NCBI GenBank assembly: GCA_902801525.1
Contig: CADCIN010000002.1
Span: 12,323-76,322 of the forward strand
Source: an uncultured Erysipelotrichaceae bacterium
GTDB taxonomy: Bacteria > Bacillota_I > Bacilli_A > RF39 > UBA660
Length of the DNA: 64,000 bases
Direction of reading: 5' to 3'
Part shown: positions 3,001 through 6,321 of the stretch, in pieces
Numbering within the stretch: position 1 is the stretch's first letter
Layout: each line of letters begins with the position of its first letter
Translations under genes and position numbers: made by a program
The notes under the pieces: model-generated
Seen by the model: the letters and a program-made list of their open reading frames with translations, nothing else
Told to the model about the DNA's origin: nothing
Database searches by the model: none

Positions 3001-3927
3001 TTGTTAGTAAGAAAAGATGAACTAGTGATTAATTCAAGTAATTATAGTGATTATAAATATACATGTAATACAGATAGTGCTACATGTACAGAAGCAACAC
3101 TCCGAATGATATCTGGATATAGTGCAACAGGATATAACTATGCTCCAAATCATTATTATGGTAGTAGCGTAACATGGGATGGAACCAATTATACATTGGT
3201 AGATCCAATAGAAATTGAAAACTATAATAATATGAATAATATTTCTACACATCACTATATGTGTGTATCAAACGGATTAAAAACGTGTGCGACAGTAGCT
3301 TATTTGTATTATTATACTGGTTCAGGAACAATGTATTATATAACATTAAAAGATGGAGTTACAACGATTGATAAAGCACTAGAAGATATGCTGACAAAAA
3401 ACACCACAAATTCTATAATGAAAAGTGGAGTAGATGCATGGTATAAACATTATTTATTAGAAGATTATGATGATTATATAGAAGATACAATATTCTGTAA
3501 TGATAGAAGTATAAGAGCATTAAATGGATGGAATCCAGATGGTGGAATGACAAATGCATATCTACAATTTAAAGAATATAATGCCACAAGTGATTTAAGT
3601 TGTACAAATACAACAGATAAATTTAGTGTATCCAATAATAATGCAAAATTAACTTATAAAGTAGGCTTGATGTCAAGTCCGGAAATGAACATTTTAAATA
3701 ATAGTAATGCTGGAAAAACAGGACAAATTTATTGGCTTGCTTCGCCTTACTATTTCGGCTACGACGGCGCTGGCGGTCGTGGCGTGTACTCGAACGGTAG
3801 CATGAACGGCTACTTCGTCCTCGACGCTATCGGCGTGCGTCCGGCAGTTTCACTGACACCAGGCATCGAGTATTCTGATGGAGATGGAAGTATGGCAAAT
3901 CCATACAAAGTTGAATTAGGAAGCTAA
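79..3927 (+). CDS. DGR target: large surface protein with signal-anchor, vWA/MIDAS domain, Listeria-Bacteroides-type repeat, repeated Cys-pair modules and a C-terminal variable (C-type-lectin-like) domain
   Basis: Long ORF; the ATG at 79 has a good RBS. Hydrophobic anchor TTLVGSLAVLILILSAV. MIDAS-like VLVLDISGSMSG (~691-708). CEGYLFKGWEID...VMPEHDVTIRATW repeat. Five recurring Y-x-C-x(6-9)-C modules. The C-terminus YWLASP...GVRPAVSL contains the VR. Confidence 0.85.
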   Translation: MKIHLDRQKDRQKDRQTDRQTDRQTDRQTDRQTELLADKIPKINQEKKSKKKRLHFAWNKLKFKKKHSFMSQNTEEIEILDFDEPTKFETRKKPKIKFPNIVIKNKFKFATTLVGSLAVLILILSAVTGANVIKVSAKKFLEGLGIYTEEVKKVEIQSNDYDNQGSWHIDKSAKWTGSNTAQVTFDLNSIMKTGDHYKDVVLVLDISGSMSGDKMTKAISDSKELVSYLLSNSQNRIAIVTFDSTSTVISTFSNDKDDLLSKLDTITTTGCTNYNAALQNVDVVMNGYTKESNRDVVTLFLTDGYPNEDTPNQVGTFEVLKDKYPYMTVNGVQYEMGTDIIDEIKQITDSQWVADQSTLNNVLFDASISPIVYEKFVVTDFVHDDYFTIGSVSDIKVTMGTVTLEDDSGTPKITWNLGKNSYMTGGNAKMTINLTLKPQYVGSEGFYPTNKRENINYKLPEDTEKNVNSTNTPVLKNNYEVIYDTNTPTGCTLSDIASEKHFIYQNVTKKTNELSCEGYLFKGWEIDENDAKDITIVNDDIFVMPEHDVTIRATWTRQSIVKSMDGTVHEKTTLYKVLQNEAATGTYAKEYTGNHQDSMNASKSTQKIYYYYGSSATNGTAILDKNNVLFAGQCWQMIRTTDTGGVKMIYNGEAVDNQCLSTRGTHVGYASRTSQNLASNYWYGTDYTYDSAAKTFKVSGTTEQTTWNATTGPGLVGKYTCKLTSEDGSCSTLYLVESYYNTTSAYVIPLNSNSNYSQFGTLQFNASYNSPTYVGYMYGDVYAYSSTNGKTSQSFTTTQTMLQSTSLGTSYWYADNVDYGTSTAGRYSLVDPYQVSGTTDYPNLVGKYTFRSSSQTNTSTSVYYIAAVNNTTMYYKQLQSGNLLSAYEPIVFGDSITDNGDGTYTINNPTNVTLSDWYTNYANYKEKYTCNDSSTTCASPRYTTATTSTNYTYINAGEKIMIGKTRSGLTLTDTLLVRKDELVINSSNYSDYKYTCNTDSATCTEATLRMISGYSATGYNYAPNHYYGSSVTWDGTNYTLVDPIEIENYNNMNNISTHHYMCVSNGLKTCATVAYLYYYTGSGTMYYITLKDGVTTIDKALEDMLTKNTTNSIMKSGVDAWYKHYLLEDYDDYIEDTIFCNDRSIRALNGWNPDGGMTNAYLQFKEYNATSDLSCTNTTDKFSVSNNNAKLTYKVGLMSSPEMNILNNSNAGKTGQIYWLASPYYFGYDGAGGRGVYSNGSMNGYFVLDAIGVRPAVSLTPGIEYSDGDGSMANPYKVELGS
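94..179 (+). repeat. tetranucleotide microsatellite: two GACAGACAGAAA units followed by (GACA)15
   Basis: Counted directly. Perfect GACA units run 118-177, preceded by imperfect units at 94-117. The tract lies inside the 5' end of the 79-3927 reading frame and is translated as DRQK/DRQT repeats. Confidence 0.95.
3732..3851 (+). repeat. DGR variable repeat (VR) within the last ~65 codons of the target gene
   Basis: Gap-free 120-nt alignment with 4164-4283. There are 24 mismatches, all at adenines of the other copy. 72 of 120 nt are G or C, in an AT-rich genome. Confidence 0.93.
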
Positions 3928-3960
3928 ACTGTGGATGCCTGACACTAAACACTTGAAAAA

Positions 3961-3986
3961 GTCTCACGAAAACCCTTTCGTGAGAC
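3961..3986 (+). promoter_or_regulatory. perfect hairpin (11-bp stem GTCTCACGAAA/TTTCGTGAGAC, loop ACCC) downstream of VR and the target-gene stop
   Basis: Inverted repeat read directly. It is not followed by a T-run, so it is not a canonical terminator. It could be a DGR target-recognition structure or an RNA stability element. Confidence 0.5.
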
Positions 3987-4044
3987 ACTCCTGAATTACA
4001 TCTTGCTTTTGAAGAAGTAGAAATCAAGAGATAAAGATAGATGA

Positions 4045-4078
4045 GCACCATAATATCATTTTGATGATATTATGGTGC
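4045..4078 (+). terminator. perfect 15-bp hairpin (GCACCATAATATCAT / ATGATATTATGGTGC, loop TTTG) between target gene and TR
   Basis: Inverted repeat read directly. There is no clear T-tract, so a terminator function is uncertain. Confidence 0.35.
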
Positions 4079-4163: not shown

Positions 4164-4283
4164 TTGGCTTGCTTCGCCTAACTATTTCAACAACAACAAC
4201 GCTAACGGTCGTAACGTGAACACGAACGGTAACATGAACAACAACAACGTCAACAACGCTAACGGCGTGCGTCCGGCAATTTC
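4164..4283 (+). repeat. DGR template repeat (TR), non-coding template RNA region
   Basis: Matches VR except at 24 A positions. It reads as 17 AAC codons (NNNNANGRNVNTNGNMNNNNVNNANG). It lies 236 nt after the target stop and upstream of avd and the RT. Confidence 0.93.
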
Positions 4284-4475
4284 CAACTCACATATTTTTG
4301 TCAAATTTATAATGAATAAAAGTTATGTTGAAATTTGGCACTCTCACATACAGTTGTGAAACAGGTACAATTCTATGAACGTAAGTTCTAAATAAATTAA
4401 TAGTGTAAGCTACGAGAGGTAACTTAGTTGGCTTTCGTAGCAACTTACTATTACAAACTAAATGAGGTAAAATTT

Positions 4476-4841
4476 ATGCATGAGAACAAAGAGTTTAAGC
4501 TATATGTAGAAATTCTAAATTATAGCAGATACATAAGAAAATATGTTCTTTGCAATATACCTAACGTGCACAGAGATTTACGGATTCATTTGATGGATGA
4601 GGTTAATAGCTTAATTAGAAATTTGGTTTCAGCAGAAAGTACAAAAGGAAATATAAGAATGAAATATATAACAGAAATGATAATTAATATCAAAATGTTA
4701 GATATAATTTCATCTGACATAAGAGACTTTTGTCCTGAAAGCAAAAAGCATATTAATAAATCCGTAGCTATTTTGGCAACATTAAAAAATATGACATACG
4801 GATGGCAGCAGAATCCAGAACCAAATGAAAGCACTAAATAA
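4476..4841 (+). CDS. avd: Avd-like accessory variability determinant (small basic helical protein)
   Basis: 121 aa from the ATG at 4476, with a GAGGT RBS 7 nt upstream. It sits between TR and the RT, and its stop overlaps the RT start by 17 nt. The call rests on size, charge and position only. Confidence 0.6.
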   Translation: MHENKEFKLYVEILNYSRYIRKYVLCNIPNVHRDLRIHLMDEVNSLIRNLVSAESTKGNIRMKYITEMIINIKMLDIISSDIRDFCPESKKHINKSVAILATLKNMTYGWQQNPEPNESTK

Positions 4842-6321
4842 TGATATATATTATAAACCAATTACTTATGAAAATGTAATTTCTACGTGGGATATTGTAA
4901 GAAGAACTTGTAAAAACAAAAGAGCAATATTTAGATACCATGTAAACAAGAATTCCATGAATTACAATATATATCAAATATTATTAAATGGCTTATATAA
5001 ACCTTTGCCTTTTCGATTATTTTTAATCTTTGAACCAAAGGCAAGATTAGTAATGAGCCAGACAGTGGGTGACAAAATTGTTAATCATTTTGTTGCTAAA
5101 TATTATCTTTTACCATATCTAGAAAATAAGCTTATTGATAGTAATGTAGCAACAAGAAAAGGTAAAGGAAGTAAATATGCAGATAAATTAATAAATGACT
5201 ATATTAATAAAATTAGAATTAATAATCCTAAGTCAGAAATATATGTGTTGAAGATAGATATAAGTAAATACTTCTATACTATTCCACACGATATTTTGAT
5301 GGAAAAACTTGCAAAAAGAATTCAAGATATAAATGTATTAAAAATTATTAAAACAATTATTGATGAAACAGATAAACCTTATATTAATAACATAATAGAT
5401 AATTTAAATAAAAAATATGGGACCAATATTCCTCATTATGAAAAAGGAGTTGGATTAAGTATTGGTGCCATGACTTCTCAATTTCTAGCGATATTCTTTT
5501 TAAATGATTTAGACCATTACATTAAAGAGGATTTAGGATGTAAGTATTACGTAAGGTATATGGATGATTTTATTATTATTGATACAGATCGAGATAGATT
5601 AAAAACAATTTGGAAATTGATTGAAATTGAGTTAAAAAAATTAAAATTGAAAATTAATCCTAAGAGTTCAATTGTTAATTTAAAAACGGGAATTACATTC
5701 TTAGGATATAAGTATAAGATAGATAATGATAAATATGATGTAACTTATAGAAAAAAGACAATTAAAAAAATAAAAAAGAAATTAGTTACATTAAAGAAGC
5801 ATGATTTAATGAAATATTACAGGTCTTATGGTAGTTATTATGGTTACTTGAAAAAGATAAAGACTTGGGAAAGGGAGTTTACAATGAAAGCAATAGAAAA
5901 GTACGATTACTTTAAAGAAAAGAATCCCAAAAAAATTATTCTTGTAAAAGAAGGCAGTTTTTATAAAACATATAAAGACGATGCTAAGTTGCTTTGGAAT
6001 TTATTTGGCTATAAATGGAATAATTCATCGATTGCTTTTGGTGTAAGTAATGCAGGAAAAATCTTTGACAAAATAAAAAGTCAAGGATTGGGATACATTA
6101 CAATTGAAAACGATTCAAGTACTATTGAAATACAAGGTAATGATATTGTATATGACTCTTATCTAAATATTTCATTAATTAATTATGAAAAGTATGAGAA
6201 GAAAAATAGACTACATAAAATGTTAGATGAACTAATTGAACAAGATATGAATTTTGTTAATACTCTGGAAGAGTACTTTAATACACTACAGAGAGGAGAT
6301 GGTAAGAGTGAAGAAAATTAA
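4825..6321 (+). CDS. DGR reverse transcriptase with C-terminal MutS-domain-I-like extension
   Basis: SIGAMTSQ fits the [LIV]GxxxSQ DGR-RT hallmark. YVRYMDDFIIID contains YMDD at 5557-5568. It is adjacent to the TR/VR pair. At 498 aa it has a ~146-aa tail from 5884. Confidence 0.9.
   Translation: MKALNNDIYYKPITYENVISTWDIVRRTCKNKRAIFRYHVNKNSMNYNIYQILLNGLYKPLPFRLFLIFEPKARLVMSQTVGDKIVNHFVAKYYLLPYLENKLIDSNVATRKGKGSKYADKLINDYINKIRINNPKSEIYVLKIDISKYFYTIPHDILMEKLAKRIQDINVLKIIKTIIDETDKPYINNIIDNLNKKYGTNIPHYEKGVGLSIGAMTSQFLAIFFLNDLDHYIKEDLGCKYYVRYMDDFIIIDTDRDRLKTIWKLIEIELKKLKLKINPKSSIVNLKTGITFLGYKYKIDNDKYDVTYRKKTIKKIKKKLVTLKKHDLMKYYRSYGSYYGYLKKIKTWEREFTMKAIEKYDYFKEKNPKKIILVKEGSFYKTYKDDAKLLWNLFGYKWNNSSIAFGVSNAGKIFDKIKSQGLGYITIENDSSTIEIQGNDIVYDSYLNISLINYEKYEKKNRLHKMLDELIEQDMNFVNTLEEYFNTLQRGDGKSEEN

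Follow-up and report, generated by a model that had tools for sequence, protein, structure and literature searches.

Introduction

The diversity-generating retroelement (DGR) of Bordetella phage BPP-1 is the closest described counterpart of the system presented here. Its target gene mtd, which encodes the tail-fibre tip protein, carries the variable repeat (VR) and is followed by avd (accessory variability determinant), the template repeat (TR) and brt, the gene of the reverse transcriptase (RT); sequence is transferred from TR to VR in an adenine-specific manner. This work describes a DGR found in 64,000 nucleotides of DNA from an uncultured Erysipelotrichaceae bacterium (GenBank assembly GCA_902801525.1, contig CADCIN010000002.1, positions 12,323 to 76,322 of the forward strand), a stretch referred to below as the window, with positions counted from its first letter. 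The window is chromosomal and has a GC content of 25.8%. Judging from the sequence comparisons gathered here, the element very probably serves to vary the ligand-binding domain at the C-terminus of a VWA surface protein anchored in the membrane, in uncultured rumen and gut Bacilli of Erysipelotrichaceae-like affiliation.

Several features of the known systems are relevant for the comparison. Cryo-electron microscopy of the BPP-1 ribonucleoprotein (RNP) has located an Avd-binding stem-loop just downstream of TR, and the same study has described the "cPRT Stop" element, composed of a duplex, a stem-loop and adenosines, a layout then found in 207 other DGRs (bioRxiv 10.1101/2023.10.23.563531). 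DGR targets need a hairpin or cruciform 3' of VR, with a 7-10-bp GC-rich stem and a GRNA loop, at a distance of 4-34 bp (PMC3240598). Among the target domains, DUF6273 has been described as a C-lec-like one (PMC10743442). With regard to mismatch repair, three DGR RTs with a MutS_I-like C-terminal extension are known, as well as separate MutS-like (MSL) accessory genes in DGRs (Wu et al., 2018; PMC5758913), and in Bacteroides the output of DGRs is cut 5-10-fold by the host MutS, MutS-like (Msl) accessory proteins having been found in DGRs of this genus (bioRxiv 10.1101/2024.11.15.621889).

The locus of the window shares with BPP-1 the adenine-specific transfer, an RT with the IGxxxSQ and YMDD motifs, an accessory protein of Avd fold, a 14-nt GC-rich block at the 3' end of both repeats followed by a VR/TR difference, a stem-loop 3' of TR, a duplex of about 12 bp between upstream and downstream sequences, and an adjacent stem-loop followed by adenosines. 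However, the BPP-1 element is phage-borne while this one is chromosomal; the gene order is VR-avd-TR-RT in the former and VR-TR-avd-RT in the latter; bRT has 328 aa, whereas the RT of the window has 498 aa and a MutS_I-like C-terminal domain; the hairpin after VR lies within 34 nt and has a GRNA loop in BPP-1, but lies at 109 nt and has an ACCC loop here; and, in place of a tail-fibre tip protein, the target is a membrane-anchored VWA protein of 1282 aa. It is a clean example of a well-known DGR system and not a new kind. The first-pass annotation of this DNA had proposed a complete DGR with the signature of adenine-specific mutagenic retrohoming, and the adenine pattern, the DGR-type RT and the Avd-like fold agree with it; the MutS_I-like C-terminus of the RT, the structures around TR and VR, and a tetranucleotide repeat in the target gene go beyond it.

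The Template and Variable Repeats

The pairwise alignment of VR, inside the target gene, with TR, in the intergenic region, extends over 120 nt without gaps and contains 24 mismatches (for coordinates see Table 1); the same pair is recovered independently by a repeat search of the window. At all 24 mismatches TR has an adenine, the VR base being G (14 times), T (nine times) or C (once). The probability that 24 randomly placed mismatches would all land on the 39 adenines of TR is 2.3e-15. TR starts 236 nt past the stop codon of the target gene (3925-3927) and contains 17 in-frame AAC codons, 15 of which are substituted in VR. The first-pass annotation had already reported this alignment with every mismatch on a template adenine, the counts of AAC codons, the distance of TR from the stop codon and the order target-VR / TR / avd / RT on a single strand, and realignment, recounting and the layout of the cassette bear each of these out. 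Because 38 of the 39 TR adenines occupy codon positions 1 or 2, and because of the 17 AAC codons, the number of protein variants reachable without a stop codon is calculated as 15^17 x 48, that is, about 5e21.

The randomised sites of VR extend from 3748 to 3830, and the first 16 nt at the VR 5' side lack any template adenine. At the other side, a GC-rich 14-mer, GGCGTGCGTCCGGC (VR 3832-3845), is identical in TR, and shortly after it VR G3847 stands opposite TR A4279. This position holds G in 22 of 22 recovered VRs and A in all TRs. It is, according to these alignments, a fixed VR/TR difference beside the 14-mer, similar to the IMH/IMH* (initiation of mutagenic homing) pair, and not a randomised site; therefore, 23 mismatches remain at sites that are randomised across relatives. 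The VR/TR homology is over 4 nt later, which, together with the shared 14-mer and the fixed G/A difference, gives a putative 3' boundary of the IMH type. The conserved ends of the repeats occur exactly twice each in the 64-kb window, compared with 0.00-0.02 occurrences expected by chance, and therefore one VR and one TR are present there. VR is also a compositional outlier, with 60% GC against 47.5% in TR and 25.8% in the window, a property usable for finding such elements in AT-rich genomes.

Turnover of the Variable Repeat in Related Cassettes

The comparison set comprised 16 near-identical or related cassettes from rumen and gut metagenomes (related loci are designated by L followed by a number), each VR being compared with its own TR; a look-up of the exact Avd sequence gave ten more contigs from different samples. 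In 11 of the 16 cassettes Avd is 100% identical. The TRs are nearly invariant and the 16 cassettes contain 15 distinct VRs. Mismatches are found at 346 of the 632 sites with a template adenine and at 4 of the 1288 other sites (Fisher p = 2e-196). Among 9 VRs, 37 of the 39 columns with a template adenine are variable, and the VR bases at such sites are A (45%), G (31%), T (20%) and C (4%). For instance, VR differs by about 20% between L001 and the window, as against 2-3% in the neighbouring cassette. The VRs also carry the lineage-specific changes that TR shows outside its adenines: GAGTGG, AGC, ACG and GTCCGT in L008; TTGTTTCGCC and GCGCCC in L063-L067, L069 and L070; and GCT in the window. 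Since each VR mirrors the non-adenine changes of its own TR and varies at the template adenines, the writing of VR would be recent; this tracking is predicted by repeated TR-to-VR copying, and not by duplication or recombination. The earlier proposal of activity in this lineage is in this way confirmed and strengthened, as near-identical cassettes have different VRs, almost solely at template adenines, and the check on related genomes that accompanied the proposal gives a VR polymorphism nearly confined to these positions (346 of 350 mismatches). All of this points to an element that has been writing its VR recently.

It could be argued that the DGR was once active in the lineage and is now silent or defective in this genome, so that the VR differences among strains are merely historical. 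This is improbable given that strains with 100% identical Avd carry different VRs, which implies a very recent turnover, that the ORFs are all intact and the catalytic motifs all conserved, and that the TR and VR of the window show no mismatch outside adenines, even if a promoter scan gave 37 sites, compared with 39.9 expected in shuffled sequence, with none above chance upstream of TR, and even if L074 (ERR3201402) has a VR identical to that of the window, which must have been stable enough for assembly twice.

Other observations weigh against a strictly adenine-directed copying from the adjacent template. One or two non-adenine VR/TR differences are present in L006, L008 and L067, and the VR of L010 (8898-9020) is accompanied by the TR of another lineage (9332-9452), with 10 non-adenine mismatches. 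The idea of a VR that ignores its own TR was considered for L010 and discarded: this contig of a metagenome-assembled genome (MAG) is probably a chimera of co-occurring strains, which is likelier given that L008, recovered from the same host species, has an identical VR. In-frame VR indels of 3-9 nt inside AAC runs are found in L001, L003, L006, L008, L063, L064, L070, L071 and L075, and two TRs have a fifth AAC; their location suggests slippage of the RT or of replication on a repetitive template.

Some loci depart from the complete cassette. In the rumen contig L003 (reverse complement 304-605, corresponding to window 3921-6405), 115 nt between the target gene and the gene that follows replace 2.48 kb with the TR-avd-RT module and the hairpin H1 described below, and the target gene is kept, with a diversified-looking VR, despite this clean absence. 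The cassette is therefore a discrete presence/absence unit, and the L003 VR can only have been written in trans, or else at a time when the cassette was still there. In two other loci there are two target paralogues with VRs that match one TR (7199-7318 and 9931-10050 in L004; 4-90 and 13636-13754 in L076). The operon and the second target copy of L076 are separated by an IS66 transposase, and the VR of that copy has a 1-nt deletion.

The Reverse Transcriptase and the Avd Candidate

The complete RT gene (4825-6321) encodes 498 aa, with SIGAMTSQ at residue 212 and YMDD at residue 245, at the positions given by the first-pass annotation, which had also noted the 17-nt overlap with the preceding ORF. 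Pfam detects RVT_1 (E 1e-19), and the match to the phage RT family PHROG 1423 is very strong (E 4e-72). Among solved structures the best match is bRT, the DGR RT of the Bordetella phage (8ub7), both with the single sequence (E 7e-23) and with a profile of 45 sequences (E 2.4e-34); the group II intron RTs in PDB are weaker (E 2e-13 and 5e-18, respectively), and bRT outranks both group II and retron RTs among the PDB matches. The search against RT models that had been advised thus puts the DGR type first, the group II and retron matches being weaker or sub-threshold. S212, I213, G214, S218, Q219, D247 and D248 are invariant in 45 homologues, and the residues of IGxxxSQ and Y-DD are kept.

These results bear on the alternative that the locus is not a DGR at all, that is, that the RT is of the group II intron, retron or defence-associated (DRT/UG) kind, and that the repeat is a partial gene duplication which diverged by chance or through recombination between paralogues. 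It is true that target paralogues are present in some relatives (L004 and L076), and the RT has sub-threshold matches to the group II model of NCBIfam (group_II_RT_mat, 104 bits vs cutoff 300), to Drt3a (NCBIfam, 64 bits vs cutoff 200) and to several UG/DRT models of PADLOC, where the homology is that of RTs in general (<=116 bits). All of them are, nonetheless, far below their cutoffs and weaker than the matches to bRT and PHROG 1423; Rfam at gathering thresholds detects no intron, retron msr/msd or other known RNA family in the window, and Pfam finds no domain in the RT besides RVT_1 and MutS_I. Moreover, 346 of 350 mismatches on adenines cannot arise by duplication or gene conversion, and neither origin fits the placement of the TR adenines at codon positions 1 and 2. 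As far as aligned sequences can decide, the adenine-specific pattern has already refuted this alternative, the chance of which is negligible.

The search for RT homologues returned 1633 proteins at E <= 1e-5, the closest belonging to rumen and gut MAGs: hRUG889, the "uncultured Erysipelotrichaceae" RUG13444, and Bacilli bins from sheep and roe deer. Adenine-biased TR/VR pairs were found in 21 of 61 loci of RT homologues, from which it follows that the whole RT clade would consist of DGRs. In 17 of these 21 loci VR is upstream of TR and RT on the same strand, and the RT identity is below 70% in 10 of the 17. In L048, L049, L054 and L057, which are among the most distant, the repeat pair is downstream of the RT match and the mismatches are at T, so the layout of the cassette appears to be different there.

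The ORF of 121 aa that overlaps the RT start (4825) by 17 nt had been proposed as Avd because of its position and its basic, helical nature. An AF2 model built with 21 homologues (pLDDT 89) predicts four helices (residues 5-27, 30-55, 58-85 and 87-112), and the top Foldseek matches of the model are 2rld, 8ub7 chains B-E, 2gsc and 4dwl, with TM scores of 0.75-0.86. Of these, 8ub7 B-E and 4dwl are Avd, while 2rld and 2gsc are Avd-like S23/IVP proteins. The pI of 9.1 falls within the Avd range of Wu et al. (2018; PMC5758913). Sequence profiles, on the contrary, do not back the assignment, as no match to the ORF was obtained in Pfam (including its Avd-like family), NCBIfam, PHROGs, PADLOC or, with phmmer, PDB. 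The predicted structure is therefore that of a protein with an Avd-like fold, and the earlier proposal holds by fold and charge.

Table 1. Features of the DGR locus, in order along the window.
Feature	Position	Strand	Basis or remark
DGR target gene, 1282 aa from ATG 79	79..3927	+	ORF, Pfam
Tetranucleotide tract, 21 units (19 AGAC + 2 AGAA), 5' end of target ORF	93..176	+	
VWA domain with DISGSMSG MIDAS-like motif	682..1026	+	Pfam PF13519 and PF00092, above gathering scores
DUF6273-like (C-type-lectin-like) putative ligand-binding domain containing VR	3595..3858	+	sub-threshold Pfam
VR (variable repeat)	3732-3851	+	inside target gene 79..3927
Hairpin H1, 11-bp stem, 4-nt loop ACCC, apex GAAA-ACCC-TTTC	3961..3986	+	covariation
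Long AT-rich hairpin, 15-16 bp, between target gene and TR	4044..4079	+	fold
Stem-loop upstream of TR, GGAUUAAAC ... GUUUGAUCU, putative 5' flank of DGR RNA	4096..4120	+	predicted, 6 lineages
Long-range duplex, 5' strand UAGGAUUGUACC	4119..4130	+	12 bp with 4364-4375, brackets TR
TR (template repeat)	4164-4283	+	intergenic, 39 A
Stem-loop P1, 4299-4308 with 4331-4340, with inner arm and conserved GGUGA	4299..4340	+	RNAalifold
Invariant GUGAAACA	4356..4363	+	conserved in all 8 aligned lineages
Long-range duplex, 3' strand GGUACAAUUCUA	4364..4375	+	12 bp with 4119-4130
Small hairpin GAAC-GUAA-GUUC	4377..4388	+	predicted in 7/8 lineages, stem sequences differ
A-rich run	4389..4400	+	directly after small hairpin
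Long bipartite hairpin before the ribosome-binding site of avd	4398..4453	+	independent folds, 8 lineages
avd (accessory variability determinant), 121 aa	4476..4841	+	predicted basic four-helix bundle
DGR reverse transcriptase core, aa 1-349	4825..5871	+	RVT_1, PHROG 1423, bRT match
MutS-domain-I-like extension, RT aa 350-498, acidic, pI 5.6	5872..6321	+	Pfam MutS_I

Predicted RNA and DNA Structures Around the Repeats

The structures around VR and TR were compared among lineages whose RTs are 50-67% identical. Alignment of the 3' spacer with MAFFT and RNAalifold gave stem-loop P1 alone, since the 3' half aligns poorly; the other helices are supported by independent folds and a hand-anchored count of pairs. 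P1 has 10 pairs in 8 lineages, 7 of them compensatory. The long-range duplex that brackets TR is fully paired (12/12) in 6 lineages and nearly so (11/12) in a seventh, which amounts to 98.8% of cells, with 5 of the 12 pairs compensatory; slid controls are 30-48% paired. The stem-loop upstream of TR is predicted, with differing stems, in the window, L007, L009, L011, L012 and L016. The bipartite hairpin before avd consists of an outer stem, an asymmetric internal loop and an inner stem of 10-15 bp whose sequences are unrelated between lineages, and its region in the window folds at z = -2.7.

In position and size P1 is a match for the published Avd-binding stem-loop, by analogy with the BPP-1 particle, and the layout of 4356-4400 resembles the cPRT Stop element. 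Given that the arrangement around TR corresponds to that of the BPP-1 RNP study, we infer a self-priming RNP mechanism like that of BPP-1. According to this analogy, an RNA of about 4096-4453 would fold so that the 12-bp duplex and the neighbouring stem-loops clamp TR onto RT-Avd; the RNA would prime cDNA synthesis on itself near the TR 3' end; the RT would be faithful at C, G and U and misincorporate opposite A; and the cDNA would replace VR, with the 3' boundary at the 14-mer and the G/A difference 3847/4279, a replacement that hairpin H1, downstream of VR, would probably assist.

H1 lies 34 nt past the target stop codon and 109 nt past VR. Nine distinct lineages have it, always at a distance of 90-110 nt downstream of VR, and their lower stems differ in sequence. 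Pairing extends to 94% of cells, 7 of the 11 pairs are compensatory, and the observed score was reached in 0 of 500 shuffles. It might be the analogue of the DGR target-site hairpin or cruciform, but several points weigh against this: compared with the published distance (4-34 nt) and loop (GRNA), H1 is 109 nt away from VR, has an ACCC loop and a stem that is only partly GC-rich, and it is absent after VRs without an adjacent cassette (L003 and the first L004 copy, L004a). Because of these differences and of that absence, a role of H1 in homing is just a guess.

The second structure of this region, the AT-rich hairpin, is not conserved in distant relatives, and its function is probably termination or insulation. 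When scored as terminators, both post-gene hairpins qualify on the minus strand alone. It is quite conceivable, although we lean the other way, that the two are mere transcription terminators of the target gene without any role in retrohoming. They stand just past the stop codon, H1 keeps a constant distance to the gene end and not to TR, and the cassette-less VR of L003, without H1, still looks diversified. Nevertheless, no T-run follows H1 on the coding strand, and its apical 12 nt, loop included, are conserved at such RT divergence while the lower stem covaries, which is atypical for intrinsic terminators; the known requirement of DGR targets for a hairpin or cruciform 3' of VR (PMC3240598) also speaks for more than termination.

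A MutS_I-Like Domain Fused to the Reverse Transcriptase

The C-terminal extension of the RT is matched by Pfam MutS_I with E 1.6e-5 (25.5 bits vs cutoff 20.6), and is conserved throughout the family of RTs of about 495 aa (alignment of 45 homologues). The RT motif GSFYKTYKDDA corresponds to GDFYELFxDDA of MutS, with the mismatch-stacking Phe kept (F379, nearly invariant). Residues 13-51 of MutS align with the domain profile in many PDB entries, at E values of about 0.5-1.5. From this range, the FYK positions are presumably those of F36 and E38 of E. coli MutS. Most of the best 120 of the 1633 RT homologues have about 485-515 aa, the shorter entries looking truncated, and around 40 of those 120 have a precomputed MutS_I annotation. 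The loci recovered for the family come mainly from gut and rumen MAGs labelled Bacilli or Tenericutes.

Two findings limit the resemblance to MutS. The match is limited to profile positions 4-46 of 113, and the Glu of the Phe-X-Glu motif for mismatch recognition is replaced by Lys both here and in the family consensus, FYK[TS]; that motif is thus missing, its Glu position being Trp, Arg or Ser in some RT homologues. In addition, the full-length RT profile gives no MutS match in PDB.

In contrast to the Msl/MSL accessory genes, which are separately encoded, the MutS_I-like domain is here fused to the RT, and just the N-terminal third of MutS_I is recognisable; moreover, Wu et al. (2018) noted three RTs extended in this way, whereas a larger family of such RT length is seen here. 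The fused domain could engage the densely mismatched heteroduplex of cDNA and VR and limit its reversal by the host mismatch repair. This shielding of the mismatched intermediate is plausible by analogy, because of the MSL genes and RT extensions of Wu et al. (2018) and of the MutS suppression and the Msl proteins in Bacteroides.

The Target Protein

The target begins with a basic cytoplasmic N-terminal tail that contains (DRQT)n, followed by a single transmembrane (TM) anchor at about aa 109-127 (the hydrophobic maximum of the protein is FATTLVGSLAVLILILSAV, at aa 109) and a VWA domain (VWA/VWA_2 at aa 202-316, E 5e-14 in Pfam). Its distal part comprises a long Cys-containing repeat region, the C-terminal domain that bears VR and a 25-aa tail. 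In each of 16 related loci, a homologue of the target gene stands upstream of TR-avd-RT.

The assignment of the VR-bearing domain to DUF6273 is favoured by the close homologue P0158, which is above the gathering score of this family. Other results weaken it: the domain of the window matches DUF6273 at E 8.8e-4, below the gathering score, and Foldseek with an AF2 model of the C-terminus (275 aa, including an extra N-terminal beta-rich part; pLDDT 87) gives weak hits (E >= 0.016), to DUF6273 phage proteins and to the C-lectin domains of CD23. A phmmer search of the target C-terminus found no match in PDB. As in the tentaclin-type DUF6273 proteins diversified by DGRs (PMC10743442), VR lies in a DUF6273-like domain with AAC-rich codons in its C-terminal part; here, however, the domain ends a very large cellular VWA surface protein, and the neighbours of the gene in its operon-like cluster include SipW, a sortase and matrix proteins of the BsaA family.

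The body of the target gene diverges sharply among relatives that are otherwise 97% identical, upstream of about 3408 (window 3078-3408 compared with L001, L005 and L006). L005 and L006 realign solely at window 125/165-2411, and L001 ends before that. This pattern indicates that the middle region of the protein is mosaic or recombining.

A Tetranucleotide Repeat in the Target Gene

At its 5' end the target ORF includes an AGAC-type tract (Table 1) in which all three frames encode the same RQTD-type tetrapeptide repeat. Upstream of it there are two starts in different frames, ATG 60-62 and ATG 79-81, each preceded by a GGTGA Shine-Dalgarno sequence. The (AGAC)n tract is also present in L006 and L062-L071. 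Across 12 complete related loci the number of perfect AGAC units ranges from 1 to 20, and the frame that continues into the main ORF is that of ATG-79 in 7 loci and that of ATG-60 in the other 5, the third frame never being used. The hallmarks of a contingency locus are therefore present: the simple sequence repeat (SSR) is coding, its unit number varies between close strains, and the frame changes. The tract is likely a slippage-driven contingency repeat, as far as these loci tell, that adds variation of phase or of the N-terminus to that produced by the DGR. In L067, moreover, an A-run that is A7 in L066 has shrunk to A6 (at about L067:787-792, some 38-45 nt past the anchor AAGCGACTTCATTTTGCGTGG). 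This contraction frameshifts the target gene and leaves it OFF from both starts; it may be a second slippage site or an assembly error.

The SSR contingency loci of Haemophilus influenzae likewise have a tetranucleotide repeat in the 5' coding region of surface genes, with copy-number changes that shift the frame. In this locus, by contrast, the same peptide repeat is encoded in all frames, the gene stays ON in two of the three states thanks to its two starts, and the gene is also a DGR target. A literature search found no description of a contingency repeat and a DGR combined in one gene, which makes this a small but possibly new observation. A more speculative proposal, which we hold with more doubt than confidence, is that the target is under two stacked systems of hypervariation, the DGR acting at the tip and (AGAC)n toggling or retuning the expression and the N-terminal tail, while the MutS_I-like module captured by the RT in this large clade of gut and rumen Bacilli protects the heteroduplex from mismatch repair. 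If this were true, the module would be a built-in anti-repair device that explains the escape from the 5-10-fold MutS suppression seen in Bacteroides.

Genomic Context

The identifiable flanking genes are cellular; blastn of the window against a phage collection gave no match, and a tRNA scan of the window found none. A surface-structure cluster (6308-11393) lies directly after the RT. It begins with a GTG start at 6308, overlapping the RT stop, for a Flg_new/SHIRT/DUF11 repeat protein of 695 aa, and includes two BsaA-family SipW-dependent matrix proteins, SipW, a sortase and a protein that ends in a sortase-type signal (SPNTM, a TM segment and KKKN). By its position in the sequence, the target belongs to this surface-structure gene cluster.

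A variable segment at about 11930-16815 combines small ORFs with a large XisF/CcrB-like serine recombinase (13407-15065) and with a valS gene (15166-16815) that lacks the first ~290 codons. The same arrangement is shared by L072, L074 and L075 but missing from L073 and L077, which have other genes between the sortase operon and RadC/MreC. The segment is likely a small integrative element without the DGR. An island inserted into valS through the serine recombinase, with the DGR as one of its parts, was also considered; this idea was dropped because the variable segment starts only after about 11930.

Concluding Remarks

For specialists, the interest of this locus lies in four features: the clade of RT-MutS_I fusions, a clearly delimited RNA scaffold, a conserved hairpin at some distance from VR, and a contingency repeat within the target gene. 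It also offers a natural DGR of textbook quality with ready population data, namely 15 VR alleles in near-identical backgrounds from different ruminant samples. Its fused MutS_I-like domain and its RNA scaffold, backed by covariation, make the clade suitable for two questions: how DGR intermediates evade mismatch repair, and how far RNA-guided self-priming is conserved. With respect to the organisms themselves, the findings extend DGR-driven surface variation to a very AT-rich lineage of uncultured rumen Bacilli, in which the location of the target beside SipW, BsaA and sortase genes makes functions in adhesion or in the matrix plausible.

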